A DNA stretch of 54,567 nucleotides from Candidatus Bathyarchaeota archaeon (GCA_026015035.1 JAOZHB010000050.1:1-54567), one strand, 5' to 3'. Positions 2,197-53,120 are shown, counted from the first letter of the stretch. Notes: generated by a model from the sequence alone, not told the origin. Numbers and translations: made by a program.

Positions 2197-2339
2197 TGGG
2201 ACTAAGCTAGCGCGTGCGCTAAGAAACGACAACTGTACAATGCTACAGTCAGCAACTAATCTGTTCCTCTTTTTTTTCTCTTTCTTATTTTTCATTGTTT
2301 AGTATTCACTAAAGCGCGCTAATTATTTAGACTGATAGT

Positions 2340-2528
2340 TCATTGTCGTCGTTGTTTACGTAGCTCTTTAGGGCGAGTTCGTTGTGTTCTCAGGTGTATA
2401 GCTAAGATGCCTAAGAAGAGCATTATGAGTGATATGATGAAGAGTTCAACGCTTTGAGTCCTCTCCCATACGCCTAAAATTATGATGAAAGACATTGTGA
2501 TTAAGATGATGTATTGACTCAATTTCAA
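2340..2528 (-). CDS. Small membrane protein (2 TM helices, basic tail)
   Basis: Two hydrophobic stretches; GGAGGG upstream on the minus strand. Confidence 0.55.
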   Translation of the reverse strand: MKLSQYIILITMSFIIILGVWERTQSVELFIISLIMLFLGILAIHLRTQRTRPKELRKQRRQ

Positions 2529-2746
2529 TCATTTATCCCTCCAATTAACATAGAACTCCTCTAATTAGATGTACTTAGATAACTAAAATATTATTTTCCA
2601 CTTTAGCCAAACGTATACTGAAATACATCCTTTAATGACAATAGACAAGGCTCCTAAACAACTAATGGGTACCTAATTAAGTCTTAGAATAAAAATTTGC
2701 TAGCCAGCTACACTCACTATATTCACTAAAAAAGAGAGAAAAAATA

Positions 2747-3090
2747 ATGTCAGTACGTAACCATCGATTGGCGAGAGAGAAAAAACAATTGAAGCCATGA
2801 TAAAAATATATTGTAATGATCATCATAGCACCAGTAATGAGCTTTGTTCAAACTGTCAAGAGCTTTTTGAATATGCAAAGACATGTCTTGAAAAATGCCC
2901 CTTCCAGGAGAATAAACCAACCTGTGCCAAATGTCCAATACATTGTTACAAACCACGTATGAGAATAAAGATAAGGTCTGTCATGAGGTATTCAGGACCT
3001 CGAATGTTATTCAAACACCCAGTTTTAGCATTGCATCACGTTCTTGACGGATTCAAGAAACCTGAAAAAACTCCAAAAAGTCAAGGATAA
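2747..3090 (+). CDS. YgbA-family (nitrous oxide-stimulated promoter) Cys-rich protein, apparently frameshifted near the 5' end
   Basis: MIKIYC..C..C..CP..KPTC..CPIHCYKP..MRYSGPRM pattern in ORF 2797-3090; the upstream RLAREK(K)TIEA segment from ATG 2747 is one base out of frame at an A6 run. Confidence 0.8.
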
Positions 3091-3365
3091 AGCAAAATAA
3101 AGGCTAGAAACGTTTTATTTTACCTAATGAAAAAATGCCTGGATGTTTAATGCAGACAATACTTAATAAAAAAGTTGGTCTGCTCATTTATTAGCAAAGA
3201 ATGAGAGAGAGCTATTATCAGATAATATCACAATAGTCGTCTAGCACTCACAATTTGTGACCATCTTTAATGATGATATTGTGTGAGTGTCGATTGTGCG
3301 CTGATTATATAACTTTCACAACTCAAAAACATTAATGATAAAAAATTAAAGGGGTGAATGAAAAG

Positions 3366-3497
3366 ATGAGAGAATTTACATGTATCTATCATTTGTTTAA
3401 TCAGGACGTACAAAAGAGGAAGAAAGGACTATCAGAACACACAAAAGAATTATATCGTGATATCAAAGAAAGACTTGAGAAATTATTTCTAGAATGA
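3366..3497 (+). CDS. Small hypothetical protein (43 aa, MREFTCIYHL...)
   Basis: Manually translated ORF with GGGGTGA RBS upstream. Confidence 0.4.
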   Translation: MREFTCIYHLFNQDVQKRKKGLSEHTKELYRDIKERLEKLFLE

Positions 3498-3537
3498 AAG
3501 TGTGCATGGGCAATTAAACACACGACATTTTCCTTTT

Positions 3538-4350
3538 TTATTTATTGGATTTCGAACCATTCAGCTGATAGCTAGTTAGTTCTTCCTTGATAACGGACGG
3601 CAACCAATCTCTCTCATGGGGAATATTCTCGTTCATTCGTGCGATAGCGATGGGTAAACGCCAAGCCTTGAGTTCTTTGAGTGAAATGTCTCGGATTTCT
3701 CTGTATCGTTCAAGATAGCGGTCAATGAACGATTGTAAGGTCCCATGCCATTCTGGGGGGACGGCGAATTGAAAGCCTTGCGACATCAACAACGTTCTGG
3801 CAATATCGGCGTGTGGATTGCCTTGGCATGCGGTCATCCAGTCGATGATTACTGGTCCTCGTGGTGACATGATGACATTCATCGGATGTATGTCATAGTG
3901 GCAAAGGCTAGTTCCATCTTTCCTTTGGTTGAGGACGTGAAGTGCCCTCGTTCTCTCTTCATCAGAAAGCGTCTTTGCTTGGCGGATGTTACGCTCTATC
4001 ATGCCGCGCAGAGAAGGTATATCGGGTATCTCGTGTGAATGGATGGCTGTGTGCAGTTCTGCAAGTATCTCAGCATATCGTGGAGCCTCATTGGGTTTTG
4101 TTCCCATCTCCTCTAGCATGGGGTTCCCTTCTACTCGTTCGAAGATTATCCCCTTTCGTCCATCCATGTCAATGATGCCTTCGACGGCTGGGGCTGGCAA
4201 GCCAGACTCGTAGATAACGCGGGATAGCTTCTCCTCTCTTTCGATCCAGCTATGAGGACACCAATCCATAAACAATTTTAGGACTCTGTTATCGCCCCAA
4301 GCAAATACCTCGGCGGTACGACCAGTCCCAATGAGTGGCCCTTTCTTCAT
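3538..4350 (-). CDS. Aminoglycoside phosphotransferase/kinase-like protein
   Basis: IGTGRTAEVF, VLKL, CHYDIHPMN and IIDW kinase motifs. Confidence 0.85.
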   Translation of the reverse strand: MKKGPLIGTGRTAEVFAWGDNRVLKLFMDWCPHSWIEREEKLSRVIYESGLPAPAVEGIIDMDGRKGIIFERVEGNPMLEEMGTKPNEAPRYAEILAELHTAIHSHEIPDIPSLRGMIERNIRQAKTLSDEERTRALHVLNQRKDGTSLCHYDIHPMNVIMSPRGPVIIDWMTACQGNPHADIARTLLMSQGFQFAVPPEWHGTLQSFIDRYLERYREIRDISLKELKAWRLPIAIARMNENIPHERDWLPSVIKEELTSYQLNGSKSNK

Positions 4351-4395
4351 TCTGAATTCCCGATAGCTAGCTAATTTCGTCGTGAGAAGATCTTA

Positions 4396-4704: not shown

Positions 4705-4833
4705 TTCTTATTTATTTACTTCTCAAAGGCATAGTCATTTATACGGTATAGCACCTCATAACTAAGTGATTTGTAATCAAGCTCCGAGGTGGGGAGCTAT
4801 ATAAATACCAAGAAGAAAGGGAGGTAGAGAAAT

Positions 4834-5172
4834 ATGCCGACTCTTTTTGCTGTGTACAACATAAAAGAGAAACAAATGGCTGAGGAATTCGACAAATATC
4901 TCACCAACACGAAAATTCCAGGGATCAGAGGGGCGCCTTGGTGTACAGCATTTAATACTTGGAAGATAGACAAGGTTCTTGCGCCTGCAGTTTCTGAACC
5001 TGAGGGAGAACTGCCTTCAGAGTCTCCTTACATGTATGTTGCCAAGATTGAAGTATCTGATTTAGATGCAATGGTGAGTTTTCTTGGCACTGATGAAGGA
5101 AAAGCATTTGTCAAATCCTGGAGTGTCTACATTGATCCTGGAGCGATCTTCACACTGGGGCATGAAGTATAG
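4834..5172 (+). CDS. Dimeric alpha/beta-barrel (EthD/REDY-like) protein
   Basis: Size and pattern (LFAVYNIK..PYMYVAKIEV.D); GGAGG RBS. Confidence 0.6.
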   Translation: MPTLFAVYNIKEKQMAEEFDKYLTNTKIPGIRGAPWCTAFNTWKIDKVLAPAVSEPEGELPSESPYMYVAKIEVSDLDAMVSFLGTDEGKAFVKSWSVYIDPGAIFTLGHEV

Positions 5173-5940: not shown

Positions 5941-6049
5941 TCTACACGCTTCTTGTAATCAGTATAACAGTCAGTACTATTCGAATACTAACAAACGATA
6001 AATCTAGCTAGCTTCTAATGAGTTGGGTTACGAGCTGTATGGTTCGAAG

Positions 6050-6169
6050 CCGCTGAGGGGGTCGTGGGCTGGGAGCTGGTGATGCCTGCGTCGACTTGTC
6101 CACTCACGAGTATCCCAATTCGACGCATTGGGCCCGCCGATCCTCGGACGCTCCCGGCATTTCAGGCGG
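6050..6169. ncRNA. Candidate structured RNA/DNA element, family unknown
   Basis: GC-rich intergenic patch with complementary segments 6087-6094/6120-6127, 6057-6064/6138-6145, 6068-6076/6150-6158, 6050-6056/6162-6169. Confidence 0.3.
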
Positions 6170-6584
6170 ATTTAACAAGGTATAATGCACGCAATATCCG
6201 TGTCATTTCCCTATGTAACAGGTCATCTTTTAGGCGCCTTAGACGAAATACGCCGCGATTTAATCTCCTTCCCAGAAAAATTTTTTTCAATTTATCGTTT
6301 TTTACATATGGAAAAATGAGAGAGACCCAGTCCACCTGTACATACAGCAGTGGCCTATCTGGCTAGCGATAAATGGTAATGTATCCCAATTATTTCCTAA
6401 AATTTACATTTTAGAGCCCGAGAATTTGCCCTTTTTATGCATTATCTTAAAGAAATCTGTAAATTCAAAACAGCTAGCTAGCTTTGTTCTTTCATACAAA
6501 GAGGCTTGGATGAAGCAATCTCTAACAGCTAGCTAAATTTTTTTATTAGTTTTGCTAAAGGATGTATTAAGCTGGGATTGAACC

Positions 6585-9942: not shown

Positions 9943-10185
9943 AAACGCTGCGTTAAGCAAGCTAGAGGCTGATGAGTAATTATTGACGCTTCCATACTCT
10001 TGCTTACCCCGTTCCTTCCGACGTTATGCTGTGAGCCGTGTTGGGAGCCCCACGAGGCTTTCAAAGCCGCGTTCGACGCTCTACCGCTTCTGCTTCAGCC
10101 TCCTGTACAACTGCGAGCCCCCTTCGATGACGGGGTGGAGCGCGCGCTAGGCTCGACGTGGGCTGCTGCCTGAAGACGACTGACG

Positions 10186-13228: not shown

Positions 13229-13321
13229 GCTCCGGTAGTGTAGTCCGGCTAAGCATTCGAGCCTCTCGACACCCGTGGGAGAAAGCTCGTGACCCGGGTT
13301 CGAATCCCGGCCGGAGCACCA
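13229..13321 (+). tRNA. trnE: tRNA-Glu(CTC) with a 15-nt canonical 37/38 intron (13269-13283), CCA encoded
   Basis: GCTCCGG/CCGGAGC acceptor stem, CGAGC/GCTCG anticodon stem, GGTTCGAATCC T-arm; CTCT/GGAG central helix with 3-nt bulges forms a BHB. Confidence 0.95.
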
Positions 13322-13516
13322 TTTTACCAGTAACCAGGTAGAAGCCAACGACTCCGAGTGTGCAGATAGCATACCCCGACACAAGCAATCCTGTCAATCA
13401 CTTTATCTATACTATAGATTGATTCGTATTGTTAAGCCCCTTGTATAAGTCCCTCATAGATTTTGACACCTTGACATTAAGAAATAGTGATGGGCCATGG
13501 AGGGGATGATAGTTAA

Positions 13517-14368
13517 TTAATTCGTTTTCTTTATGACGGCGTCGTCTAGGCTCATTCTCTGGGATTTTATGGGGGCTTCGTCTGGCCACCCGATGATGAG
13601 GTGGCAGCGGGTTATGAAGGTCTCTGGGAGGCCGAAGAGTTCTCGGATCCGCTGTTGCGTCTTCTCGCCGTGGGTAAGCCAGCACGCTCCTAGTCCGAGG
13701 GCGTGGGCCATGAGGCACATGTGGTCGGCGGCGGCTGCCGCGTCATAGTAGATGTTCTGGGGGACGAACTGGTCGAATCTCAAGGTCTTGTATACGCGTA
13801 GGTCTTGGCAGATGAGGATCATGACCCCGTTTTCGATGGGTATGTCGCTTCGGACCAGCCTCCACTCCTCGGGGCTGCGGAGGACGATGAACCTTGTTGA
13901 GGCCACGTTGCATCCTTGGGGAGCCATGAGCCCTGCATGCATGATCTCCCGCAGCATCTCGTCGGGAACCGGCCTATCCGTGAACTGTCGAATGGATCGC
14001 CTCCCGTAGAGTAGCTTCCTCACCGCCTTCATCTCCGTGTTGGAGAAGGGTTCAGGCAATGCGGTCTCGAGCGTTACGGGTATGCTGGCGTTCAACTTCT
14101 CAGCGATCTCGATCATCTTTATGCACCACTGGAGGTCTTGGGTGTCGGTTGGCAGCGTCCTCTCCCTCCACACATCGAGGAGGAGCTTGGCTTGACTGCC
14201 GAAGTTCTTGGGTTTCGCCATCTTCCCCTTGAGAATCCGGTAGAGCTGGACCTCGATGGTGTGGTGGGTCCGCTCGTGGAGGACCGCCCTCAGGGAATCG
14301 ACATCCATCACCAACAAGTCGTTTCTTGCGTACCCATGTATCTTTACAGCCATCCTATCCCACTCCAC
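13517..14368 (-). CDS. Nitroreductase-family protein with N-terminal extension
   Basis: RRSIRQF, AP.GCN, AHALGLGACW. Confidence 0.88.
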   Translation of the reverse strand: MEWDRMAVKIHGYARNDLLVMDVDSLRAVLHERTHHTIEVQLYRILKGKMAKPKNFGSQAKLLLDVWRERTLPTDTQDLQWCIKMIEIAEKLNASIPVTLETALPEPFSNTEMKAVRKLLYGRRSIRQFTDRPVPDEMLREIMHAGLMAPQGCNVASTRFIVLRSPEEWRLVRSDIPIENGVMILICQDLRVYKTLRFDQFVPQNIYYDAAAAADHMCLMAHALGLGACWLTHGEKTQQRIRELFGLPETFITRCHLIIGWPDEAPIKSQRMSLDDAVIKKTN

Positions 14369-14467
14369 TTCCCTTTCAATCCCTTATACTACAATCCTTC
14401 AGGTGTATGGTATCTGAACAAGGAACATATATACCCATTACATACTACCTCTTGGAGGGATCTTAGG

Positions 14468-17626: not shown

Positions 17627-17681
17627 CCCTCAAATTCAGCTAGCTAGCTTGATAAGAACAGCATCAACAAAGGGATGAAAT

Positions 17682-17915: not shown

Positions 17916-17938
17916 GAGGCTTCTGGGGTCTGAGAGAT

Positions 17939-40501: not shown

Positions 40502-40525
40502 CTACTTTACTGGTAGACTGCGGAC

Positions 40526-40581
40526 GCACATGACATTTGCGCCAGCACATGACGGGTTTACGCTCCCAGCACGTGACGGGT
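40526..40581 (+). promoter_or_regulatory. Direct-repeat operator candidate
   Basis: CCAGCACATGACGGGT (40542-40557), CCAGCACGTGACGGGT (40566-40581), partial GCACATGAC (40526-40534), followed by TATATATA. Confidence 0.55.
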
Positions 40582-40615
40582 CAACATATATATATGTAGA
40601 CGATGATGTCATCTC

Positions 40616-41335
40616 ATGCCATTATTTGACGCATTGATACGCCTCACCCATGACTCGCAGTTCATTGACTTTTCCCGCAAGTTTCCTTCTGCGAAACTGT
40701 TTTTTTGGTGTAATGGTGAGAATGACGTGCTCGAAATCGTGCTAAGCAATCCTGACGAATATGCACAAGCGAAAGAGCACCTCCCAAAAGTTGAGGGACT
40801 CATTGAAGAATCCACGGATCACACCAAGATCCATCTCATCACCCGTAAATGCGCGTGTACGATTCATACTTCATTGGACTGCTGTATCGGCGACCTCAAC
40901 CTGCTTCAGGTCTACCCAGAGATCATTCAAAATGGGTGGGAATTCCACCGCATCATCGCGTTTCAACATGACCATTTAGCAGAACTATTGCATCGCTTAG
41001 AGTCTGCGGGGTGGCTTGTGGAAATTCTCAGGAAAGTGCCCTGTGAAGGATTGATCGCTAGTTCATTGATGCTCACGGCGGACGCTGTATTTGCTACTTT
41101 GACGCAGAAACAGATTGACGCAGTGTTGACTGCACATGGTAAAGGGTATTATCAAATTCCACGCAAAGCAGATCTTCAAACCATCGCAGCTACAACACAG
41201 GTGGCACGAACCACCTTTCAAGAACACCTGAAAAAAGCGGAAAATAAACTCGTTACCGCCCTCGTGCCCTACATGAAACTCTTTGCTTACACGCCTGTCA
41301 ATCGACGAGCCCCCCTCAAGATGCCCGTTGGCTAG
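40616..41335 (+). CDS. HTH-10 (Bat-like) transcriptional regulator
   Basis: LTQKQ...A..KGYY..PRK..L..IA......T..EHLKKAE.KL. Confidence 0.9.
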   Translation: MPLFDALIRLTHDSQFIDFSRKFPSAKLFFWCNGENDVLEIVLSNPDEYAQAKEHLPKVEGLIEESTDHTKIHLITRKCACTIHTSLDCCIGDLNLLQVYPEIIQNGWEFHRIIAFQHDHLAELLHRLESAGWLVEILRKVPCEGLIASSLMLTADAVFATLTQKQIDAVLTAHGKGYYQIPRKADLQTIAATTQVARTTFQEHLKKAENKLVTALVPYMKLFAYTPVNRRAPLKMPVG

Positions 41336-41470
41336 TAGCTAGCTATACTCCCCGTAGCGGGCGCTAATTGATGAAGCAACGAGTCCAACAATCCACCACA
41401 AGCTGCAAATACTCTTTTATTTTCCACTCACAGGCATAGCTAGCTAGTTGGTGGGATAGGAGGTGAAATT

Positions 41471-41665
41471 ATGACAGAAAAAATGCCTGATAATATGAAG
41501 CTCCATTGCATGATGGTTACTGAAGACGGTGGAAAGACTTGGACAGTAGCGACTATTTTCTATCTCGCTCCCACTTTTTATGGTGAATCTAGAGGCTTTC
41601 TTGAATCCAGTTCTTTTCAGAACATGAAGTTGGTGAAAATAGATGAGTGGACTAGCACTAGCTAG
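41471..41665 (+). CDS. Small hypothetical protein (64 aa)
   Basis: GGAGGTGA RBS; its 5' end is duplicated at 40040. Confidence 0.55.
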   Translation: MTEKMPDNMKLHCMMVTEDGGKTWTVATIFYLAPTFYGESRGFLESSSFQNMKLVKIDEWTSTS

Positions 41666-41683
41666 AACGTTTAGCGCGCGCGC

Positions 41684-42754
41684 TTATCGTTGTTTTTGAA
41701 GTGCCCAGTAAGCTGCTATACCTATGACACAAACTAATGCAATTGCTGTGACTATTGCTACTTCTGTTGAGATTAGGGAAGTTTGTGTATTAGGTTCTTC
41801 AGGTTGTGTTGTCGTAAAAAGATCAGCAATTCTGGTTTCTTTGTAAAGAAGCCCATTTTCTTCAATAACTCCCTCCGCTCCCTGAATGACTGAATTTAAT
41901 ACCGTTTCTAAATTGAGCTTTACTGTTCTATCAAAATGATGATTTTGGTAAACATATATTTCCTTGTTGACTGAGTCAAAGATGTTACTATATTTTGTTC
42001 CATATTCACCCTCTTCATGAATAGCATCAAGAATACCTCGAACTGCCTCAACTGTCAGATCCTGTTCAGAAGTTATTGCTTCAAGCATCGAAGTGGCTGT
42101 ATCATACCGCTGACAAGGATACTGTCCCACATTGGTATTCGCCAGATTAAAGTTTGTTGAAATAATATATCTTAAAGACCCTTTTCGCGTAAAAACAAAT
42201 TCTCCATCTTCTCCTACACTAACAACTACAGCATCGCCAGAGGCATCTGCAAAATGTAGTTGGTTACTCCATTGGGTTCCAAGATTATGAGATTGAAACC
42301 ATTCAATAACTTCATCTACATTGCTGCATTCCATCAGAATCTGGTCTAATGGATACGTGAAAGTGCTTTCTCTCTCTGGGTGAGGATTAAGATTCAATAA
42401 TGGAAGCGCATTACCGTCAGCACAGAGTCCCGGATCATTCATGCCTCCTTGAGCGTATCCATCCGCTTGATCGTCATTGTATTTATAGCCAAAAGCAACC
42501 ACACCATGAATATCTATAGTACCTGATGGAGTATCCAACTCTTGAGGTGGCACTGTCCACATATAGGTACCTGTAAGGCTATAATCTTCATTACTCCCAA
42601 AAAACACAATATCACCAATAGAAACTGTAAAAATGGAACATGATGTTGGATTGTCAGCAGAGTAAGCAAATACATTTGCAGCCACCATCGAAATTCCAAT
42701 GGACAAGAAAATAAATACAACACATTTCCTGATATATTGATTATTCATAAGCAA
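41684..42754 (-). CDS. Secreted, membrane-anchored Ntn-hydrolase (C45/choloylglycine hydrolase-like)
   Basis: Signal peptide, SCSIF..GSNED nucleophile region, GGMN..GL, STNF, C-terminal TM. Confidence 0.8.
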   Translation of the reverse strand: MLMNNQYIRKCVVFIFLSIGISMVAANVFAYSADNPTSCSIFTVSIGDIVFFGSNEDYSLTGTYMWTVPPQELDTPSGTIDIHGVVAFGYKYNDDQADGYAQGGMNDPGLCADGNALPLLNLNPHPERESTFTYPLDQILMECSNVDEVIEWFQSHNLGTQWSNQLHFADASGDAVVVSVGEDGEFVFTRKGSLRYIISTNFNLANTNVGQYPCQRYDTATSMLEAITSEQDLTVEAVRGILDAIHEEGEYGTKYSNIFDSVNKEIYVYQNHHFDRTVKLNLETVLNSVIQGAEGVIEENGLLYKETRIADLFTTTQPEEPNTQTSLISTEVAIVTAIALVCVIGIAAYWALQKQR

Positions 42755-42772
42755 AACCTTGTTTCTACAAAA

Positions 42773-43459
42773 TCATCGTCGTCTCAAGTATAATACAGGT
42801 ACAATAGCAGCAATTGCTATTGCGACTATTAATACATAAAATAAGGTTGGTTCCAATCCAAATATTTGAGATTGCCACATATTTGTTTTATCAACAATAA
42901 ATTTCTGAGTGAAATCATCCGCAGATTGGTCTGATTGAAGAAGAATCCCAGTAGTTTTATCCCATCTGAATACGATCTGATTAATGGTTGCGTAATTAAC
43001 AAGTCTATTTGCATCTGCATATGTATGCTCTTCTGTACCACCAATTGCGATGTTCCCGAAGTCTTCGTGATAGAATTCATCGCCAATATCAAGGTTTACT
43101 GGTACTAGTAGGAGGTTAGGAACTCCTGTTTCAAGGTTGAAGGTACCGCTATTTGTGTCCGATGTTCCGTCTAATCTCTCAACCGTCAAATCAGCGGTTA
43201 TACTCGTTCCTTGAATACTTGTGACCTCGATTCTCACCCGTTTTGGGTAATTATTTGGAGGAGAACCAGTGTAACTAACGTTATACTCGATCCAATCCCC
43301 TTCTTTAACACCTACAGAAACATCAGCTAATACTGACACTGGCGATAAAATAACAAGCGATATTAAACTTAAACAAAACAATTCAGAGGAAAGTTTCTGG
43401 GTCATAAAACTTCCTTCCAATCTTTCATGTTTTTCCATTAAAACTTTATGGTCAAACAC
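42773..43459 (-). CDS. Secreted/surface protein with C-terminal membrane anchor
   Basis: Signal peptide, VGVKEGDWIEY, WDKTTGIL, TM followed by RRR; true start possibly 43405. Confidence 0.75.
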   Translation of the reverse strand: MFDHKVLMEKHERLEGSFMTQKLSSELFCLSLISLVILSPVSVLADVSVGVKEGDWIEYNVSYTGSPPNNYPKRVRIEVTSIQGTSITADLTVERLDGTSDTNSGTFNLETGVPNLLLVPVNLDIGDEFYHEDFGNIAIGGTEEHTYADANRLVNYATINQIVFRWDKTTGILLQSDQSADDFTQKFIVDKTNMWQSQIFGLEPTLFYVLIVAIAIAAIVPVLYLRRR

Positions 43460-43676
43460 AAGTTATTCGAGGTCGCCATGTTTCTCTTTCATTTCTTAGA
43501 AACTTAGCTAGAAATATGTTTCCCATCCCTCAACACTCATCAGGCGTCAGGTAGGAACAGCACTAGCTGCTCATCGTCGCTGTCCAATGGGCTCTCATAA
43601 AGTCGATCGAGCTGGGACTAGCGCGTGCTCAGAAGTTCCATAAACATCACTTCGTCGACGACAATCAGTCGAGACA

Positions 43677-44066
43677 TTATTCTTCATGGCTCGCAGGCGT
43701 TAACCCTTCGTTATCATCAACGTATGTACGTCCTCGCGCCAAGTTGATCCTCCACTTCCGATCAAACGCCTCATCAACGTCGAGGGTGGGGTCAAGGCAG
43801 TAGAGGCCATTGAGGCAGTAAAAGATGGCGTCGATGAATTCTTCTGCGACGTGCGCCGTGAGCTCCTCGTCTGTGGAGACATTTAATTCTCGTTTAAGCC
43901 ATTCCCTGTCTCCGCGGTGCTTCCACGCGTCGCCTGCTTCCCCCAACTCAATAATGGCGTAAAAGACCTTGGTCCCCACGTGCTCTCGACTTATGCCCCA
44001 GCCAAACCTCTTGGCTAACTCAATTACCTTGTCTTTAGCTATGTTTAACGTAGGCATATCATCCAC
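43677..44066 (-). CDS. MazG-like NTP pyrophosphohydrolase
   Basis: ELGE...EE..D..FY...K. Confidence 0.75.
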   Translation of the reverse strand: MDDMPTLNIAKDKVIELAKRFGWGISREHVGTKVFYAIIELGEAGDAWKHRGDREWLKRELNVSTDEELTAHVAEEFIDAIFYCLNGLYCLDPTLDVDEAFDRKWRINLARGRTYVDDNEGLTPASHEE

Positions 44067-44429
44067 CCCACTTATTTAGAAGGTCATTATAACAGGCAAA
44101 CAGACCTTTAAGGCGAATAGCAGGCTCTTCCTTTTATCCCTTATGACGAAAACCCAGTGAGGAACCATTCTACTCAGAAATCATCAACAGGAATACGTAT
44201 CCCTAGGGAGCGTATAGTCCACCCCTGTGTGAAACGCCAAACAAAGACTGCCCAGCTCCGAACAGCTGTTATGGGTGTTTGAGACACCGTCAATCTATAC
44301 GATTGGGCGATGAAGCCGTCGAACCCGTGTGTATAATGGTAGATGCCGTAAACATAGACCGTCGATGTTTTTAGTATGCAGAACCATTTATGTTCCGTGA
44401 ACTCAATTAAAGATGAGAGGAATAGTGTT

Positions 44430-45206
44430 ATGCAGTGGAAGAAGAACAAGTTAAAACGTATCTTGGAAGAGGAAAAAATCGCGGTGGGCACGGCTTTTTA
44501 CTCCTTCAGTCCTGCCCTCGTGGAGACCGCTGGTTACTGCGGATTAGACTTCTGTCGTATCGATAATGAGCACGCGTGGCGACAGGATGAAACCCTCGAG
44601 CACATGTTACGGGCGGCCACAATTTCCGATATTGTGGCGTTGCCGAGAGTCGATGGAAATCCGGAACTCATTCGAAAGGTGTTGGAAGCGGGAGCCTGGG
44701 GCTTCGTGGCACCCCACGTGTTGACGAAAGCAGACGTCACGAAGATTGTGCGAGCCGCGAAGTTTCCCCCGCAGGGAGAACGAGGATACGGCAGCATGTG
44801 TTTCTCCGGTCGATGGGGAACGGGCTCCGGTAAGGAATGGATCGAGTGGAGTAACGAGGAGACCATGGTGGGCGTCATGATCGAGGATTACCGGGCGGTG
44901 AAGAGGATCGAGGAGATCATGGCCGTTGATGGCTTAGACTTCATCCTCTTTGGACCGTCAGATTACTCAGTCTCCCTCGGACTCCCGACGCAGACCACGC
45001 ACCCGAAGGTCATGGAAGGCCTGCAAAAGACCATCGACGCCGCGAATCGACATGGAAAGTACGTGATGAAGGGGGTCGGGTATCCTTGGCGGGAAAACGC
45101 CGAGAAGTATATTGAGATGGGCTGCCACCTCATCGAGTTGGGCCACGACGTTTCAATCCTCAGCGCCATGTGGAAACGACTCGGCAGTGAGGTGAGAACC
45201 CTCTAA
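44430..45206 (+). CDS. HpcH/HpaI aldolase family protein
   Basis: IDNEH, FPPQGERG, MIED, FGPSDYS. Confidence 0.92.
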   Translation: MQWKKNKLKRILEEEKIAVGTAFYSFSPALVETAGYCGLDFCRIDNEHAWRQDETLEHMLRAATISDIVALPRVDGNPELIRKVLEAGAWGFVAPHVLTKADVTKIVRAAKFPPQGERGYGSMCFSGRWGTGSGKEWIEWSNEETMVGVMIEDYRAVKRIEEIMAVDGLDFILFGPSDYSVSLGLPTQTTHPKVMEGLQKTIDAANRHGKYVMKGVGYPWRENAEKYIEMGCHLIELGHDVSILSAMWKRLGSEVRTL

Positions 45207-45272
45207 GCTGGCGGCGAAGAGACCGCTCAGCTAGCTCCCTCAGCCAATACATTTAGCGTGCGCGTGTAGTGC

Positions 45273-46208
45273 TTATGCTTTGAAAACTCCCGTATCAATC
45301 CACTCAGTTTTGATGAGGGACCACCAGTCGATAGCAAGTGATTTCTGTACATAATCATACGGCAGCCAACCGTACCCACTATCGCCCCAACTAGTACCCC
45401 AAGAGTTACGTATAAGAAGTGCCCCCGTTGTCTTTACCCCACAAAGCGTGTTTTCAATCTCCACGTCGTCATCAAATCCTACGGCAACTACCGCATGACC
45501 CCCAAGACGTTTGTCTCTGGAACACGGAAAGGGGATCTTTCCAGTTGTGCTGGCTTGACGAATCGAATTGAAGACCGTAAATCCAAACATGGAGGGGAGA
45601 CCAGCGGTCAGAAAGGCCTTTATCCGTTCTACAAGCACATCCTTGGCGGTGCCAGGAGGGTCGAGACGATAGTACATAATCGACTTGTAGTCTTGTGCAA
45701 AGGCGTAACAGAAGGCAGGAGGCTCCTTCTCGAAGTCACCAATCGTGTAAACCCAATATTCCTCTGGGCAGACACCAAAAAGGACCATGGCCCCCATCGT
45801 TGTACGAATAAATGCTCCAGTATCCCCAGTCCAGTGAAGAAGGTTTCGAGTTGCCTTATACAGAAACAGCCTTGACGCATCAACATGCTTACCGAAAGCC
45901 CTTCGCTCATAGTATTCCATGAGGCCTACCCCTGCATTGGCTGTACATGAACCCAGAGAACCTTGGTTCTCTATAGGCGGGCACCATCCCTTTAGGTTGA
46001 ACGAACTAGGAATACTCACTTTGGTGGGTTCTAACACGCCCACTTTCCCTAACAACACGCTTACCGAGTCTTCTTCTTTCTTCAGTCCAATTTCCTGATG
46101 TCGTGGACGAAGGTCCTTCATGTCAATCGTGAAGTCGCGAAAGTCGGGATAATCTGGCAACCACCCCAATCCTAATTCGACGCCAACTCGTTCTTCTTTT
46201 TCAGTCAT
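45273..46208 (-). CDS. C1 (papain-like) cysteine protease
   Basis: NQGSLGSCTANA, GGHAV, RNSWG. Confidence 0.93.
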   Translation of the reverse strand: MTEKEERVGVELGLGWLPDYPDFRDFTIDMKDLRPRHQEIGLKKEEDSVSVLLGKVGVLEPTKVSIPSSFNLKGWCPPIENQGSLGSCTANAGVGLMEYYERRAFGKHVDASRLFLYKATRNLLHWTGDTGAFIRTTMGAMVLFGVCPEEYWVYTIGDFEKEPPAFCYAFAQDYKSIMYYRLDPPGTAKDVLVERIKAFLTAGLPSMFGFTVFNSIRQASTTGKIPFPCSRDKRLGGHAVVAVGFDDDVEIENTLCGVKTTGALLIRNSWGTSWGDSGYGWLPYDYVQKSLAIDWWSLIKTEWIDTGVFKA

Positions 46209-46454
46209 TGTCTCTCAAATACGTAGAATGTATGTATAGATATAAAAACGTTTGACGCACGCGTTTAGAGAGGATAGTAACGTGAAAAACACAACAATTG
46301 ACACGTGAAACGCTCTTCGGATAGAAAGCTATGGGCACCTAGTCGCTAGCTAGCGAGCTTAAAACCTTGAAACCATTGAGTGCTAAGAAACTTGCCATGA
46401 GCTAGCTAGTTAAAAAGGTGGGGCGAGTACGCTATCGTACTCTTCGTGACGATG

Positions 46455-46932
46455 CTAGTATGCTTTAGCGAGACCATTGCCTAGTAATGTTAAGTGATTT
46501 CTGTCATGAAGCATTACGGACGCAGCGACAGTGTCGATCGGTACTAGTTCCAAATATTTTTCCGTGTATTTGGCATATCCAATTGCGTATGCTTGTTGGA
46601 ATGTTTTTCCTTCTAAGAGGGCATAATTTGCGGCGTTAGAGGCTTCAGTAAACCTGTTCAGATGCCATAAATGCGCCCAATGAAGGTCGTTATAGCCTAA
46701 ATAAGCTTTGGCCGTGCTCGCGATGGCGAGAGGGCCCAGTCCTGCCGCGGATTGGCATGATACGGTACTCGCAGCACGTCCTGAGAGAAGGCCTACATTG
46801 CCAGCGTCTAAGGCGGCTTCGAGAACCCCTGACTCCTGACCCCAGAGCGTGAATGTGCTACCATGATCATAATGTATCACGAAGTCAGGATCTTCTTCGG
46901 AGATGTTGGTGGTGACTTTTTCCCGACTCGCA
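46455..46932 (-). pseudogene. N-terminally truncated caspase/gingipain(C25)-fold-like protein
   Basis: YDHGS..SCQS..YLGY..LLGN pattern; the protein-like part begins right after TAGCGCGCGCTA (46933-46944) and upstream in-frame sequence looks non-coding. Confidence 0.5.
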
Positions 46933-47068
46933 TAGCGCGCGCTAATGTAACAAGGAAGGGAGATCCGACGAATTTTAAAAGAAAAAAAAGATCGGCTATT
47001 TAGATAAAAGAAAAAATGGGGGAACATTGCGGGAGATCTCTCCCACAACATACTGGTTCAGACCTGAT

Positions 47069-49216
47069 CTAGTCTTCCTCGAGTAGACAGAACCCTTTAT
47101 CGTCAACATTGCGGTTGTGGCGACGCTCACTATTACGGATAGTTCGATCCCATACTCGGACTCGGACCACGTAGCCACACGCCACCATAGTTTTAGTATC
47201 CAGTTTCCAAGCATTACCTGCTAACGCCGTCTGTGATTCACCCGATGATACTGGAAATATAGTGCCTGTTGTCGGACTTGGCGGCGACATGCTGGCGGGA
47301 AGGGTATCCAGTCTGAAGTGTCCGAAGTGGAGATCACGAGCCACAAACTTACCGGTGATCACAGCTCCAGGCGCGTACTTGTCACACGCGCCACCGTCAA
47401 TGGTGATTTCGGCAGTGGGCACAGTGTTGTCTAGGCGGATGCGATACCAGGGTGTATTATCTAGATTGAGCGTGCCTGCATTGTTGTACAGTCGCAAGCG
47501 TATCTCCCACAGGCCGTCGCCGCTTGTGGACCACTCAACTAGCTTGTTCAAGACGTTTTGCGTTACATCCAAGTAGTCAAAGAGACCCGTGACAGGGTCA
47601 GCGTTGTGATAGGATCCATTCCCGTACATGTCCACGACCCAGATCTTGTTTGTGATGGTGAGTACGTTAGAGCTGCCGAACTCCCTTACCTCGATGCAGT
47701 ACTTGAAACCAACGTTGGGTGGCGCATGAGCGATTACAAGACCGCCAAAGGGGCACTCCCGCAGGTGAGTCCCCCAGGGATCAGCAGGGGTGCTCCACAC
47801 CGCAAATTTGGCATTCGGCTTCGTCATGCCATTACTCGCCGTATTGATATCGCCAATTCCGATACCGCCCAGGATGCTGATCTGCGCCATAAGTTCCCAA
47901 GGTTTCCCTGGCTTGATCTGCACGTGGGTGTCCAGACGGTTACCCCAATAGGGGACGTCATTCGGGTCAGTGGTGGAGGGCGGCGTATTCCACGATAGAA
48001 CCGCACGCACACGGGCAATCTTCGGCTTGTTGCACGGTTGACGGTGCGAGCGTAGATCGACGGGGAGGATGGCCGTATAGTGAAGCCCATCGGCTGGCAT
48101 GCTTGCTATGTCGTAAACACTCACTTCCACCGTGTCGAGATAGGTCCACTCACAGGTGTCATCCCAGTCCGCCCAGAACGCTATGTACTCCTTGCTACCC
48201 TTCTTGCACAGGTCGCCCGAATACCCGGACGGTTTCTTGATGTGGAACGCAGCCAACAACCACTCAAGGTTATAATCCAGGCCCAAGCAATCTAACTCCT
48301 CGTAGGAAACGTTGCCGCTGGTCGCTTGCAGTGCCTCAACCGCAGCTGACCAGTCTAGGCCCACCGCATCCCATTTAGCAATCATCTTTGAAACTATCTG
48401 CGGGTTGACCGCCCCGACAGCTAGGTGCGCCTGGATATCGTTGAAACCGAACCGGTGTGGCTCCACAGCGATCTTCCCCACTTGCATCTTTGTGCCTGCG
48501 GGCGTGGTATACAGTTTCACTAAGTCAGGTAACTCTAGAGGGGGTGGTTCGGGCTGGGGAATTGGACAAGGCTCGACTTCCTCGAAGATCGGTGGCAGCT
48601 TAACCTCTTGCTTCAGAGCGATCCCGATGACCTTTACCACATCAGCAAGTAACCACAGTCGTGGTTTAATCTGGATGTGCCGCTCAAGCGTATTTCCCCA
48701 CACCATTGGCCAATCCGGGTCATCGTCAGGTGGCTCTGCCTCCCAAGACAGGATGGCCCGCACATTGGGGAGGACGGGGTTGCCACAATAGTCCCGATGT
48801 GGCTCGATGGGAAGCGTCACCACATAGGTGAGAGGTTTGTTGGGCTTGCCAGCGCAGTCGTTAGCGTTGGGGATATCATGAGCATTGAAGGCGACGAGGC
48901 CTGCGTTCTCCCAGCCGTCCCCATAATCTATGAAGAATCGCACGTATTCTGTGGTTCCAGGCTGGCACAGGTTTCCCCCATAACCGTGTGGTAGTTTAAC
49001 TTGTACGGTGGCTTCCAGCATATTCAGGTTGGGATTGAACCCGACGCAGGTCAGTTCTTCGTACGTGGTGTTGCCCACGATCTTCTTCACTGTCTTGAAG
49101 GGGCTTTTAGGCAGAGTACCAAAGTAATTCGGATTTTGAAGCATCAGCTTCTTAAACTCAATCCTTTCCTTTTCCACCTTCACTTCCATATTTCTTCCTC
49201 TTGTTTCCTTTTTCAT
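47069..49216 (-). CDS. Large hypothetical protein with an internally duplicated domain
   Basis: GNTTYEELTC..GYGGNLC..EYVRF..RAILSW..WGN..HIQIKP repeated as GNVSYEELDC..GYSGDLC..EYIAF..RAVLSW..WGN..HVQIKP; GGAGGTGA RBS. Confidence 0.85.
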   Translation of the reverse strand: MKKETRGRNMEVKVEKERIEFKKLMLQNPNYFGTLPKSPFKTVKKIVGNTTYEELTCVGFNPNLNMLEATVQVKLPHGYGGNLCQPGTTEYVRFFIDYGDGWENAGLVAFNAHDIPNANDCAGKPNKPLTYVVTLPIEPHRDYCGNPVLPNVRAILSWEAEPPDDDPDWPMVWGNTLERHIQIKPRLWLLADVVKVIGIALKQEVKLPPIFEEVEPCPIPQPEPPPLELPDLVKLYTTPAGTKMQVGKIAVEPHRFGFNDIQAHLAVGAVNPQIVSKMIAKWDAVGLDWSAAVEALQATSGNVSYEELDCLGLDYNLEWLLAAFHIKKPSGYSGDLCKKGSKEYIAFWADWDDTCEWTYLDTVEVSVYDIASMPADGLHYTAILPVDLRSHRQPCNKPKIARVRAVLSWNTPPSTTDPNDVPYWGNRLDTHVQIKPGKPWELMAQISILGGIGIGDINTASNGMTKPNAKFAVWSTPADPWGTHLRECPFGGLVIAHAPPNVGFKYCIEVREFGSSNVLTITNKIWVVDMYGNGSYHNADPVTGLFDYLDVTQNVLNKLVEWSTSGDGLWEIRLRLYNNAGTLNLDNTPWYRIRLDNTVPTAEITIDGGACDKYAPGAVITGKFVARDLHFGHFRLDTLPASMSPPSPTTGTIFPVSSGESQTALAGNAWKLDTKTMVACGYVVRVRVWDRTIRNSERRHNRNVDDKGFCLLEED

Positions 49217-49841
49217 GATGTTGTCACCTCCTTTTTATTCACTTGAAAAAGTTCTACCGATTAACATATGTGGCACACTATATTTGAAGTAATATGTTTT
49301 GCAGAACTTTATCCTAAAAATCTATTAGAAATATAAGCTTTTTAATGAGTAGAATTGCTGTCGTTGATGTTACTGGCTAGAAGAGCCTCTATAACAAAGC
49401 TGGAGTAAAGGATCTTTCGCAATACTCTTTTTCGAAATAACTCGTTGGCAGGTATTAACTAGGGGGTGTATTGATCATCTGGGTTTCTTATGATTCTTGT
49501 GCTGGTTTACAAGCTGGTGGATTCGTCGCCTGAGGGCGTCCCTGATGACGTCATCTAGTTAGCTAGTTCTCCTAGATCAGAATCAGGGAACAACATACTA
49601 TATAGTTTAAAACTGGGAAGCCAATTAATAACATGCATACGAAGTGGGAGTGGATCATCGAAGCAAGCGAAAACGGGGAGAGTGTCAGTATTACGGTCAA
49701 GAGCCCCGAAAGCAGGCATACCTCAAATGGGGTCGTCGAGAAATCCATTAGAGCGCCGTAGGCACCTATCGCATGATCCACTGCATCATTGACTCCGCGA
49801 ACCTCGTTCACACTCGGAACGCGTTGGAGAGAGGAAAATAA

Positions 49842-50984
49842 ATGAAGATAACGAAGGTAAAGACGTTCATCGTCCACCCGGGAGTGGGTAAGAACTGGCT
49901 CTTTGTGAAAGTAGAAACGGATGAAGGCATTCATGGGTGGGGGGAAGCCTACACGCAAGCTGACCGAGACACAGCCATCGAGGCCCATATCCACAAACTG
50001 GAACGGTACTTGGTGGGGTGGAACCCCTTCGAAATCAAGCGATTCACCCACATGGCCTACGAGGACTGGGCTACCAAGCGGGGTGGGATCGACTTTTTCT
50101 GCGCCGTCAGCGGAGTGGAACAGGCCCTCTGGGACATCGTTGGTAAGACCCTTGATCAACCCGTGTACAACCTGCTCGGGGGGCCCTGCCGGGATCGGAT
50201 CAGGGTCTACGCCAATGGCTGGTCGACGCGGGCAGCGACTCCCCAAGAGTTGGGTGAGCGGGCGCGAGAGGTGGTGAAGAAGGGCTTCACCGCCCTCAAG
50301 TTTGACCCCTTTCCGGGGCCTTGGCGGCTGTATATCACCCGTGAGGAGGAGCTGCAGGCCATCGGGAAGGTAAAAGCCGTGAGGGAAGCGGTGGGTCCGA
50401 CGGTGGACATTCTTGTGGAAGTGCACCGCCGCTTGGCGCCCATGCACGCCATTCGCGTAGCCCACGCTATGGAAGTGTACCGACCTTTCTGGTATGAGGA
50501 GCCGGTTCCTCGAGAGAATTTGGAAGCCTTAGCCGAGGTGCGGCGGGGCATCAGCATTCCAGTGGTGACCGGTGAGTGCATCTACACGAAAGCGGGATTT
50601 CGCAGGGTGTTTGAGACGAGGGCTGCGGACATCATCAACCCCGATATCTGTAACACGGGCGGCATCCTCGAGCTGAAAGAAATCGCCGCCATGGCCGAGC
50701 CCCACTACGTAGCGGTTTCCCCCCACAACTACAACAGTATGACGATCGGCCTGGCCGCGAGTGTGCACACTTCAGCAGTAATGACTAACTTCCTCATTCT
50801 GGAGTACTTCCTCAACTTTGAGGCCATGAGCGGTGAAATAGCCGTCGAGCCGTTACGGGCCAAGCAAGGCTTCATACGGCTTCCGAAGACCCCGGGCTTA
50901 GGAGTGGAACTGAAGGAAGAGGCCTTGGCCCGGTATCATTACCAGGAGTTTCCCAAGCGGTCGATAGCACGCTACTTGGTATAG
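49842..50984 (+). CDS. Galactonate/gluconate dehydratase-like enolase-superfamily protein
   Basis: EQALWDI.GK, YANGW, KFDPF, EVH, EEP, TGE, PHN. Confidence 0.93.
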   Translation: MKITKVKTFIVHPGVGKNWLFVKVETDEGIHGWGEAYTQADRDTAIEAHIHKLERYLVGWNPFEIKRFTHMAYEDWATKRGGIDFFCAVSGVEQALWDIVGKTLDQPVYNLLGGPCRDRIRVYANGWSTRAATPQELGERAREVVKKGFTALKFDPFPGPWRLYITREEELQAIGKVKAVREAVGPTVDILVEVHRRLAPMHAIRVAHAMEVYRPFWYEEPVPRENLEALAEVRRGISIPVVTGECIYTKAGFRRVFETRAADIINPDICNTGGILELKEIAAMAEPHYVAVSPHNYNSMTIGLAASVHTSAVMTNFLILEYFLNFEAMSGEIAVEPLRAKQGFIRLPKTPGLGVELKEEALARYHYQEFPKRSIARYLV

Positions 50985-51087
50985 AGAGTCTTGCTAGCGC
51001 GCGCTAGAGAAGATCATAACAAAATTGCTTTAGAAGAATTCAAGGAAATAGGAAAAAAGCGCTCGCGCTTTTACGGAGGCTTACAGT

Positions 51088-51609
51088 TTGGTCAAGTTTG
51101 TTCCCTATGATGATAACAGACATCGAATCCCATTCTTTGAGTTGAATGTAGAGTTAATTACTTGGATATCTGAAGAAATGCGTGCACGCCATAATGTTGA
51201 TGTCGAATCAATGATGGGACAAACCGTCCAAGAATACGTTGAGACCGTCTTTGATACCTTCACAGCCCTCAAACCGCCTAAAGGCATACTCTACATACTT
51301 GAAATTGATGATGAAGTAGCCGGTATGGGCGCTGTAAAACCCTTGGAGGATGGCGTAGGAGAAATTAAACGCATGTACATTCGTCCGAAATATCGGGGAA
51401 AAGGGTTCGGAAAAGCGATGTTACAAAGGCTAATCCAGAAAGCGAAAACGTTGGGATACACAACCCTTCGTCTTGAAACTGGAGATTATTCAACTACAGC
51501 TCATCATATTTACAGATCAGCGGGATTTAAGGACATAGATGAATATACTCATACGGAAACCCCAGAATGGTATCGACAATACTGTTTGTTCATGGAAAAG
51601 AAGCTGTGA
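51088..51609 (+). CDS. GNAT acetyltransferase
   Basis: EIKRMYIRPKYRGKGFG, IY...GF. Confidence 0.9.
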   Translation: MVKFVPYDDNRHRIPFFELNVELITWISEEMRARHNVDVESMMGQTVQEYVETVFDTFTALKPPKGILYILEIDDEVAGMGAVKPLEDGVGEIKRMYIRPKYRGKGFGKAMLQRLIQKAKTLGYTTLRLETGDYSTTAHHIYRSAGFKDIDEYTHTETPEWYRQYCLFMEKKL

Positions 51610-51725
51610 TAGCTAGTAATTGGGTTTGGGGGTTTAGGGGGTTAAATTTTTATTCTGAATTTTCCTGATGGTCTTAGTTATGCATATACGTTATCACGTT
51701 GTAGTTAGACTGCTCTGGAGCTGTT

Positions 51726-51890
51726 TTATTTATGTAAAAAGAGACCACCTGTCACTATGATGAGTAAGCTGCCTATTGCGACCGCTGCCCCGATTCCTCC
51801 TTCTGTAGCGTTCGGATATTCATATGATATCACAAACGTGGTTATAGCGAGTATGAGCCCAATTAGAATTAGCTTATATCCAACACTCAT
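51726..51890 (-). CDS. Small 2-TM membrane protein (54 aa)
   Basis: Manually translated MSVGYKLILIGLILAITTF...GGLFLHK. Confidence 0.55.
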   Translation of the reverse strand: MSVGYKLILIGLILAITTFVISYEYPNATEGGIGAAVAIGSLLIIVTGGLFLHK

Positions 51891-51978
51891 TTTAACACGA
51901 CCTAGAAGTAGGGGTATTCAAGGCTATAAAAGAACCGTCTAATTTATTGGCAGCTAGCTAGCTTAGCGCGCGCGCTAT

Positions 51979-52215
51979 ATGGATGAGGATGATGTTCCTC
52001 CGCCATTACGAAAACGATTGGATTGGGAAAAGGTGTTTCGTGCTATTCCTGTTGGGAAGGCGAGACTGATTCGTTCTGAGGATGCGTATTATACGACGGT
52101 GAGGCAGGCGTTGAAACGGTTTCAAGAGAAGGGAATATTTACAAATTATGGCATTAGAACGCGTAAGATCGGCGATGCTCGAAAGTGCTATATCATCAAT
52201 TCACGGAAGAGTTAG
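51979..52215 (+). CDS. Small basic protein, possibly 5'-truncated
   Basis: ORF bounded on both sides by TAGCGCGCGC-type palindromes; no RBS. Confidence 0.5.
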   Translation: MDEDDVPPPLRKRLDWEKVFRAIPVGKARLIRSEDAYYTTVRQALKRFQEKGIFTNYGIRTRKIGDARKCYIINSRKS

Positions 52216-52298
52216 CTAATTAGCGCGCGCACCTGAGAATACAATAGCTTATATTCAACATGAAGAGTGATATTCTTTTTATAAAGGGAGTGACGAAC

Positions 52299-53057
52299 AT
52301 GGCTTCAGATGGCAAAGTAGCAATCATCACAGGTGCGGGGAGCGGCATCGGTAAGGCAACGGCGCTTGCCTTTCTAAACGATGGCTATAGCGTTGGATTC
52401 GCCGGCCGTCGCCGGGACCCACTTGAAAACGCGATTAAGGAAGCGGGTGAAAAAGCTTCTCGTGCCATCGCAGTACCTACTGACATAAGCAACCCAGGTG
52501 CGGTTAAGAACCTATTTTCTAAAACCCGCGACAAATTTGGTCGCATCGATGTTGTTTTCAATAATGCTGGGTTCGGTGCACCGCCTGTTGCACTAGAAGA
52601 TCTCACCATTGAACAATGGAAGGCTGTCGTTGACACCAACCTGACAGGCACGTTCCTGTGCATACAGGAAGCATTTCGTGTCATGAAGAGTCAGAATCCA
52701 CGAGGTGGACGCATTATTAACAATGGATCAGTTTCAGCCCACGTGCCACGACCCAACTCCGCACCCTACGTCGCAACTAAGCATGGCATTACGGGGCTGA
52801 CCAAATCCGCATCGCTCGACGGTCGTAAGTATGATATCGCGTGCTGTCAAATTGATATCGGTAACGCAATGACCGAACGCGCCTCTAGAATTTCTCGGGG
52901 AGTCCTACAAGCTGACGGCTCAATCAAACCGGAACCGATGATGAATGTGCGCGAAGTAGCGAACGCCGTTCTGTACATGGCCAGTCTGCCACTTGATGCC
53001 AACGTCCAGTTCATGACGATTATAGCGACCAAAATGCCGTATATCGGCCGTGGTTGA
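52299..53057 (+). CDS. SDR-family oxidoreductase
   Basis: [17 protein letters not shown]. Confidence 0.95.
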
Positions 53058-53120
53058 TTTGTCGTAAATCTTAACGGGCAACTCAGATTCCAATCATAGT
53101 CGCCGCTGCCCCGCGCGCGC

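Follow-up and report, generated by a model that had tools for sequence, protein, structure and literature searches.

We analysed a 54,567-nt stretch of DNA (the window), which is an entire contig (C96) of a metagenome-assembled genome (MAG) of Candidatus Bathyarchaeota archaeon (G000; 2.06 Mb in 146 contigs, 48.9% GC), and found that it carries many copies of two short self-complementary words, TA(GC)nTA (the GC word) and (CTAG)n (the CTAG word). The words occur genome-wide, are intergenic and lineage-limited, are poorly conserved in place, and are enriched at rearrangement joints at four independent levels. We tentatively explain them as sequences laid down or kept at junctions where DNA broke and re-joined, and then aiding further deletions, an explanation that we place a little short of probable. 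An earlier note on this DNA had read the words as inverted TAGC half-sites of a possible cassette-like system for acquiring or shuffling genes, and had likened them to tyrosine recombinase sites. The cassette part of that idea was partly upheld, in that word-bounded segments come and go among strains and same-genus genomes, while the tyrosine-recombinase part was not.

Two intergenic words in the window and across the genome

Every palindrome copy listed by the earlier note was found in its place, and the copies exceed chance: the GC 12-mer with at most one mismatch has 6 matches in the window against 0.07 expected, and none of 100 shuffles reached 6. Exact copies of TAGCGCGCGCTA lie at 37593, 46933 and 50995. 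The proposed concentration in the 35-53 kb region was also borne out. Twelve of the window's 15 GC-run loci (runs of at least 7 nt) fall within 35001-53200, where about 2.7-2.9 are expected (Poisson p ~3-5e-5), which corresponds to 2.8 per intergenic kb against 0.74 genome-wide; intergenic lengths and positions throughout come from our own crude open reading frame (ORF) caller, with a coding fraction of 0.80. A site system tied to this region was not what we saw, since the words extend across the genome and the lineage. No 8-mers of G000 are more over-represented than AGCTAGCT and GCGCGCGC (19x and 11.5x over composition), and the genome holds 738 CTAG-type runs of at least 8 nt and 311 GC runs of at least 7 nt. 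About 20% of the genome is intergenic, and intergenic DNA holds 22 of 23 exact 12-mers, 103 of 110 A(GC)4+T copies and 533 of 591 copies of AGCTAGCT.

Around the GC runs only a flanking TA is favoured: of 309 runs, 221 are preceded by A (position -1) and 210 followed by T (+1), with T at -2 in 146 and A at +2 in 124. The runs themselves are 6-13 nt long. Because there is no conservation beyond the TA, we regard the GC run as a word and not as part of a longer element. Word lengths are about 8-14 nt, with none much beyond ~14 nt, and other self-complementary repeats ((GATC)n, (ACGT)n, (TGCA)n and (AT)n) showed no enrichment. A simple-sequence slippage repeat was rejected, as only two unit types are enriched and the two-unit form TAGCGCTA is rarer (5 copies) than the four-unit form (23). 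These observations, the capped lengths and the strong enrichment at joints described below also make it improbable that the words grew neutrally as simple sequence, through slippage or biased repair starting from short GCG or TAGC seeds, and bear no causal relation to rearrangement. Such growth would fit the 4-nt periodic length differences among orthologous CTAG words and the presence of GC words at sites where the consensus or paralogue has a short GCG or GC seed. It is further opposed by the methylase searches (PF00145 and PF01555): no C5 methylase turned up in any of 13 genomes, and the N4/N6 methylases do not follow the words, being absent from the word-rich genome G004 and present in the word-poor G003.

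Two of the 10-kb windows richest in GC words, C46:10001-20000 and C9:10001-20000, coincide with blocks that G000 has and the same-genus genome G002 lacks (C46:9927-18324 and C9:13987-19341). The genes of these hot-spot blocks are ordinary metabolic ones (peptidase, Mo-oxidoreductase, MFS, GNAT and similar), with no recombinase among them. The C46 block (8.4 kb) holds 8 GC words, is flanked by a 10-nt direct repeat, TATTTGACAA, and carries peptidase M20, Mo-oxidoreductase, MFS, GNAT and LarA-like genes and no integrase. At C89:4916-5226 five GC words stand within ~300 nt, 10-100 nt apart with unrelated DNA between them, and the locus looks like a series of short modules bounded by words.

Words at joints between strains

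Contigs of four public runs from four different studies (4 of the 20 listed runs) were placed on positions 33001-53000 of the window at 90% identity or more. Seven joints were retained, each with a shorter side of at least 30 nt or with listed bridging letters; weaker joints were excluded. A word stands no more than 8 nt from 7 of their 14 ends; of intergenic positions, 11.5% are as close to one (p = 4e-4).

The joint 40259->41676 was seen in two runs, X7 and X10. The strain-variable module 40260-41675 (plus strand), which holds an HTH_10 regulator gene (40616-41335), is lost there, and 24-25 nt stand instead between the end of TAGCTAGCTA and the start of GCGCGCGC. Its left end falls in TAGCTAGCTAG (40250-40260) and its right end in the composite CTAGCTAG + AGCGCGCGCGCT (41658-41684), in which (TAGC)n stands beside a GC run and which abuts the stop of a minus-strand gene (41684-42754). 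Two joints, both from X10, begin within CTAGCGCGCGCTAG (50994-51007), which contains the 50995 copy of TAGCGCGCGCTA and lies 10 nt past the stop of the dehydratase gene. One (50998->51637) skips the module 50999-51636 (plus strand) with its GNAT gene (51088-51609), and the other (50996->51061) links two GC words. In X7 the DNA between two composite words is lost (51954->52238): the left end of this 283-nt segment lies in (AGCT)3 followed by TAGCGCGCGCGCTA (51952-51977, the latter at 51964), and the right end lies 8 nt past a second composite, GTTAGCTAATTA and then the GC run 52223-52230 (52210-52231, the start being approximate). The adjacency of (TAGC)n and GC runs noted earlier is thus confirmed at 51952-51977 and 41658-41684. 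A further X7 joint, 51332->51555, lies within the GNAT gene and has GCGCGCTAT between its sides.

Another joint, 46933->49487 in X10, begins at TAGCGCGCGCTA (46933-46944), the left end of a replacement in which 46934-49486 gives way to 107 nt. This copy falls within a listed minus-strand ORF, 46455-47051; the start of that ORF is doubtful, and was probably called too far upstream, because homology with the strain contig ends exactly at the word. In all, five word-bounded segments (40260-41675, 46934-49486, 50999-51636, 50997-51060 and 51955-52237) were present in some strains and absent from others. The bracketing of single genes suggested earlier also held, as words touch or overlap gene ends at 33810, 37112, 41336, 41674 and 50997. 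With regard to circular excised forms, which the earlier note had suggested looking for, the contigs, which miss rare forms, gave only one backward joint (X5, 48109 to 37214, depth 2.3), and this joint was off-word.

The words are hardly credible as assembly or sequencing artefacts. All sequences are MAG contigs, and words are slightly over-represented close to contig ends (within 200 nt of 39 of the 292 ends, against 8.4% for random windows), which is what an artefact might give; the words recur, however, in independent MAGs of different projects, in a single-contig genome and in independent runs, and their 8-14 nt are too few to cause mis-joins in an assembly graph.

Words at breakpoints between same-genus genomes

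We compared the window with two genomes of the same genus, G001 and G002. Three blocks of the window are missing from G001 contig C1: 13324-26698 (13.4 kb), 33811-43513 (9.7 kb) and 44160-49564. The last two are also absent from G002, which has the same two right-hand junctions as G001, and at the place of 44160-49564 both relatives carry a TAGC-type word at their own junction. The left edge of 33811-43513 is marked by AGCTAGCTAG (33810-33819), which overlaps the stop of an FAD oxidoreductase gene. Homology between the window and G001 stops at 50992, two bases before CTAGCGCGCGCTAG. Most of the 35-53 kb stretch is missing from both relatives, and word-bounded genes proved to be neither syntenic nor stable among strains or relatives; stable synteny was one outcome under which the earlier note would have given up its proposal.

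For a wider comparison with G002, 65 of its 220 contigs (307 kb) were aligned with G000. Of 393 high-scoring segment pairs (HSPs), 136 were kept after removal of those under 150 nt, those under 72% identity and lower-scoring overlapping ones; HSP pairs linking different G000 contigs were excluded. Among 17 precise indels, 7 of the 34 breakpoints lie within 5 nt of a word (p = 3e-4); random intergenic positions are this close to one in 3.9% of cases and gene ends in 3.3%. Small intergenic replacements gave a similar picture, a word standing within 5 nt of 9 of the 28 alignment ends; here one genome has almost nothing but a (TAGC)n word and the other has 100-250 nt of unique non-coding DNA. When G001 was consulted for the direction of change, it matched G002 and not G000 at each of four sites, of which three have the long form and one the short. 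Of two further queries, the fifth ran off a contig end and the sixth matched in its left part only, stopping in a variable spacer.

The words themselves are poorly conserved. None of five intergenic GC words was exactly conserved between G000 and G002 (column identity 0.34 against 0.76 in the flanks), and 4 of 21 CTAG words were (0.59 against 0.77). Differences between orthologous words are often patches of similar length or 4-nt steps, and the (CTAG)n variants retain TAG or TAA at a 4-nt period. This last feature would suit selected intergenic signals that stand at joints only as the last surviving part of a spacer; such signals might be protein-binding or insulator sites, 3'-end hairpins or, for (CTAG)3, six-frame stops. 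About 90% of the copies are intergenic, words often abut stop codons, and in several shrunken spacers the word alone is left. There is also a mild excess in convergent spacers, which hold 29 of 88 placed A(GC)4+T copies and 20% of intergenic bases. We nevertheless consider selected signals quite unlikely: the copies are conserved less than their flanks, 19 of the 88 lie in divergent spacers, no distance to starts or stops is favoured among the placed copies, words arise inside non-coding repeat copies and in one copy of duplications (below), and their abundance differs greatly among sister genera. An intrinsic terminator or 3'-end hairpin is ruled against by the same 19 divergent copies and by the even split in tandem spacers, where 20 copies are nearer the stop and 20 nearer the start.

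A search for metagenome loci around the dehydratase gene gave 80, of which only two (L099 and L100) are close relatives; they have almost no words. The contig of L099, with 81-84% identity to the window, has 46 nt between its aldolase and dehydratase genes. In the window 4.6 kb with three minus-strand genes separate the aldolase (44376-45206) and dehydratase (49842-50984) genes, and the aldolase gene is absent from G001 and G002, so that three gene orders exist for one catabolic cluster. G004, from another genus, has a 5'-truncated homologue of the GNAT gene with a GC word ~10 nt from the truncation point and a composite word directly past the stop.

Words within a dispersed repeat and in duplicated segments

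G000 contains a non-coding repeat of ~480 nt at 39 loci (at least 15 in G002), with copies 70-80% alike; the window copy (6003-6483, plus strand) has (AGCT)3 at both ends and short inverted ends, and other copies include C138:16546-17006, C49:1196-1680 and C9:4081-4536. At most ~80 of the 738 CTAG-type loci, and no GC-type loci, come from the repeat, whose consensus lacks the GC word. Seven of 18 aligned copies contain a GC word, and they do so at about 7 different consensus positions; the cases comprise four in-place patches, two truncation joints and an internal deletion of ~80 nt, with (GC)5 exactly at the joint. Truncation ends (those within 40 nt of a contig end were excluded) lie within 5 nt of a word in 12 of 44 cases (p = 9e-8), or in 9 of 41 if three at an internal word of the consensus itself are set aside. 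In five copies the truncation falls at one consensus position, 321-323. No autonomous partner of the repeat was found, and a looser pattern search for longer elements with its ends gave 731 matches and no discrimination.

We also examined duplicated segments, using 338 end pairs after exclusion of HSPs under 80 nt, of those overlapping the repeat and of segment ends near contig ends. Where a GC word stands at the boundary, it is in one copy only in 25 of 29 pairs, in both in 1 and opposite a CTAG word in 3; the CTAG word is one-sided in 21 pairs and two-sided in 4. In the C133 chimera, segment A is followed by (GC)5 and then by segment B, and each segment continues differently in its own paralogue. 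The non-coding or small-ORF stretch C27:6850-8400 is a patchwork of five segments, mostly joined or bounded by GC words and 80-98% identical to loci of C89, C51, C18, C58/C23 and C18. Being one-sided and arising within copies of a repeat whose consensus lacks them, the GC words behave as a joining mark and not as a pre-existing site.

The opposite view, which is the earlier cassette idea with another enzyme, takes the words as true sites (ends or targets) at which an as yet unrecognised site-specific recombinase or transposase would move modules of gene size or less. It could account for the strain variation of word-bounded modules, for the (AGCT)3 ends of the 39-locus repeat and for its copy C122:24359-24826, which is missing in G002, where the empty site holds a single TAGCTAGC. 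It could also account for the 5.4-kb block C9:13987-19341, which lies between TCTAGCTA direct repeats and whose empty site in G002 has one similar copy, and for the eight end pairs with a word at the same boundary in both copies; the A at -1 and T at +1 could then be a duplicated TA target. Against it stand the one-sidedness of the GC word, the in-place patches and the internal deletion joint within repeat copies, the variable core length without conserved arms, and the variable blocks without a recombinase. Y1 transposase and DDE_3 genes were missing from the genomes searched (below), the sole IS5-type element found has unrelated ends, and the window's integrase is broken and has a tRNA-type site. 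We therefore regard enzyme sites of this kind as unlikely. The IS5-type element, at C84:1051-2066 (L276), is a 1016-nt insertion sequence (IS) of the IS4/IS5 type that encodes a DDE transposase of 290 aa and has perfect inverted ends of 24 nt; a copy of TAGCGCGCGCTA lies ~170 nt to its left.

Lineage pattern and enzyme searches

Among 31 genomes, exact GC 12-mers are frequent in four (23 copies in G000, 39 in G004, 36 in G005 and 14 in G007) and number 0-4 in each of the 27 other relatives, with 0-1 for a reversed control. In the single-contig G004 they are spread across the entire 2 Mb. Copies of GCTAGCTAGC number 151 in G000, 77 in G004, 73 in G002, 31 in G001 and 1 in G005. The words are thus abundant only in some genera of one family. 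Because the two types vary independently (36 GC and 1 CTAG in G005, 4 and 73 in G002), a single TAGC-N-GCTA site for both, as first proposed, is unlikely. The pattern TAGC-N(0-8)-GCTA does exceed expectation in the window (23 matches against 4.6), and 9 of the 23 are plain TAGCTAGCTA.

The tyrosine recombinase gene at the right of the window (53129-54169, plus strand) has one in-frame stop after residue 102, and its two halves score 19.4 and 18.1 bits on the XerA/integron-integrase model NF040815, against a cut-off of 220. Past it lies the 3' part of a tRNA-Gln-like sequence with T arm, acceptor end and CCA (54281-54332, plus strand); the matching stretch of G005 sits inside a full tRNA-Gln gene, and the window has no intact tRNA-Gln. 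The fragment is likely to be the attachment-site remnant of the integrase's own element, and the two together are probably one end of an integrated element. With the integrase broken and provided with its own tRNA-type site, the GC word one-sided and neither arms nor a fixed spacer present, the proposal that the words are tyrosine-recombinase sites found no support. A dif- or att-type core was likewise rejected: there are no inverted arms around a fixed spacer, only TA is conserved, and the run varies from 6 to 13.

Other enzymes were sought with family models. None of 9 family genomes, G000 and the single-contig G004 among them, had a match to Y1_Tnp (PF01797), with controls positive in 6 of 14 genomes. 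DDE_3 (PF13358) was found in 0 of 5 genomes, which thus have no Tc1/IS630-type transposase. The distribution of DDE_Tnp_1 did not match word abundance, and clustering of our ORFs revealed no multi-copy transposase family, MAGs often losing such elements. Most archaea lack Ku, and of 13 genomes only G007 has it, the 12 without it including G000 and G004.

Comparison with known systems

No description of these words was found in the literature searched, supplements aside. One parallel is the highly iterated palindrome HIP1 of cyanobacteria, a short perfect palindrome with hundreds to thousands of copies, lineage-limited and without an agreed function. HIP1 is reported both within and between genes and is linked to cognate DNA methylation. 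The present words differ in being ~90% intergenic, in the lack of a C5 methylase and in having an abundance unrelated to N4/N6 methylases. To our knowledge, the marking of rearrangement joints has not been described for HIP1.

Repetitive extragenic palindromes (REPs) and bacterial interspersed mosaic elements (BIMEs) are likewise GC-rich, intergenic, palindromic, clustered and high in copy number. REPs, however, are imperfect hairpins of greater length that a Y1 (HUH) enzyme disperses (see PMC12306157). The present words measure 8-14 nt, and the 9 family genomes searched have no Y1_Tnp gene of the kind found in REP-associated tyrosine transposases (RAYTs).

Integrons share with the present DNA gene-word-gene-word arrays, single genes that vary among strains and short non-coding 'cassettes'. 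Their attC sites are much longer and structured, the cassettes share one orientation, and an IntI gene and attI head the array. Here the words are 12-14 nt, genes of the 35-53 kb region lie on both strands, the arrays are genome-wide and the integrase is broken and low-scoring; an integron attC array was rejected, as the IntI-type integrase, the long attC site and the single orientation are all lacking.

The words also resemble filler DNA and transposon footprints, which are short, often palindromic extra bases exactly at joints, one-sided with respect to the parents and sometimes flanked by a duplicated TA. End-joining fillers, palindromic additions and transposon footprints are known mainly from eukaryotes, and known fillers are variable in sequence and copied from nearby DNA. 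In contrast, two fixed words recur here hundreds of times, in genomes without Ku (G000 and G004) and, in the five searched, without a Tc1/IS630-type transposase. The ~480-nt repeat, with its inverted ends and insertion polymorphism, behaves like a miniature inverted-repeat transposable element (MITE).

Further word copies and neighbouring features of the window

The third exact copy of TAGCGCGCGCTA (37593-37604) lies between the MFS and FAH genes. Variants include TAGCGCGTGCGCTA at 2208-2221, 12 nt past a beta-lactamase-fold gene, CAGCGCGTGCGCTA at 35791-35804, upstream of the MFS gene, TAGCGGGCGCTA at 41355 and TAGCAGGCGCTA at 40013. GC runs beyond those in the earlier note were found at 35556, 35668, 37112, 37180, 37676, 52223 and 53112. 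TAGCGCGCGCAG (37110-37121) provides the MFS stop codon with its TAG, TAGCGCGCGCAA lies at 37178-37189, and G002 homology begins directly after GAGCGCGCGCTA (10138-10149).

The variable region encodes sugar-acid catabolism (MFS, FAH, two enolase-superfamily dehydratases, HpcH aldolase and SDR) together with the GNAT protein. The block 13324-26698 begins just past the 3' end of a tRNA and has CTAGCAAGCGCTAGC ~32 nt before its right edge. This tRNA (13229-13321; 93 nt) probably carries an intron according to ARAGORN, which did not name its anticodon, and was the sole Rfam match in the window. The genes of the block are ordinary, NADH-dehydrogenase-like ones among them, and at least the first 870 nt are present in G002 as well. 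Positions 4711-4836 have several 70-88% matches in G001, G002 and G004 and within a G000-specific block of C50, and are probably another small dispersed repeat. The thermosome protein of the window is 93% and 88% identical to counterparts in Bathyarchaeia MAGs.

Interpretation and implications

According to the explanation that we prefer, TA(GC)nTA and (CTAG)n would be placed, or preferentially retained, where non-coding DNA broke and re-joined, that is, at deletions, insertions of foreign or duplicated segments and truncations. We infer that the words, as a filler or footprint, are written at the joint and are not simply its target, and that they favour deletions thereafter. Hundreds of intergenic words would provide microhomology, leading to deletions between neighbouring copies, so that genes and short non-coding modules between two words would be gained and lost among strains. 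The 35-53 kb region would be dense in GC words because it is a much-rearranged accessory block. A stronger form of the same idea, to which we give distinctly less credence and which we think rather unlikely, is that dedicated break-joining or module-moving machinery writes a fixed word at each new joint. There would then be cassette-like traffic without integron-type sites, in which intergenic DNA becomes a patchwork and single genes or modules are shuffled, captured and lost, with no recognisable recombinase.

Several points weigh against words written at joints. We know of no process that adds these two sequences at joints, and no enzyme for the words was found among the families searched (C5, N4/N6, DDE_3, DDE_Tnp_1, Y1_Tnp and Ku). 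Of 54 word-carrying end pairs, 8 have a word at the same boundary in both copies, and the dispersed repeat is bounded by (AGCT)3 on both sides; both are expected of true element termini or target sites. Many joints are wordless (27 of 34 breakpoints, 32 of 44 truncation ends and 284 of 338 end pairs), and shared words can pull alignment ends towards them. At the three aligned species-level sites, where G001 groups with G002, insertion beside a pre-existing word fits equally. Finally, all data are MAGs and assembled contigs with crude gene calls, and they cover 65 of 220 G002 contigs and 4 of 20 listed runs.

Bathyarchaeia are abundant uncultured sediment archaea with widely varying gene content. 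In the genomes studied here, the limits of stretches that differ in gene content are legible in the sequence, since they carry one or the other short word. Were the words written at joints, they would form a natural record of past rearrangements and would point to an unrecognised archaeal end-joining or transposition activity; if they are enzyme sites, they would represent a minimal cassette system. Because the two types vary independently among sister genera, they offer a handle for phylogenetic profiling. Either way, the words could be used as markers of variable regions in MAGs of this family.

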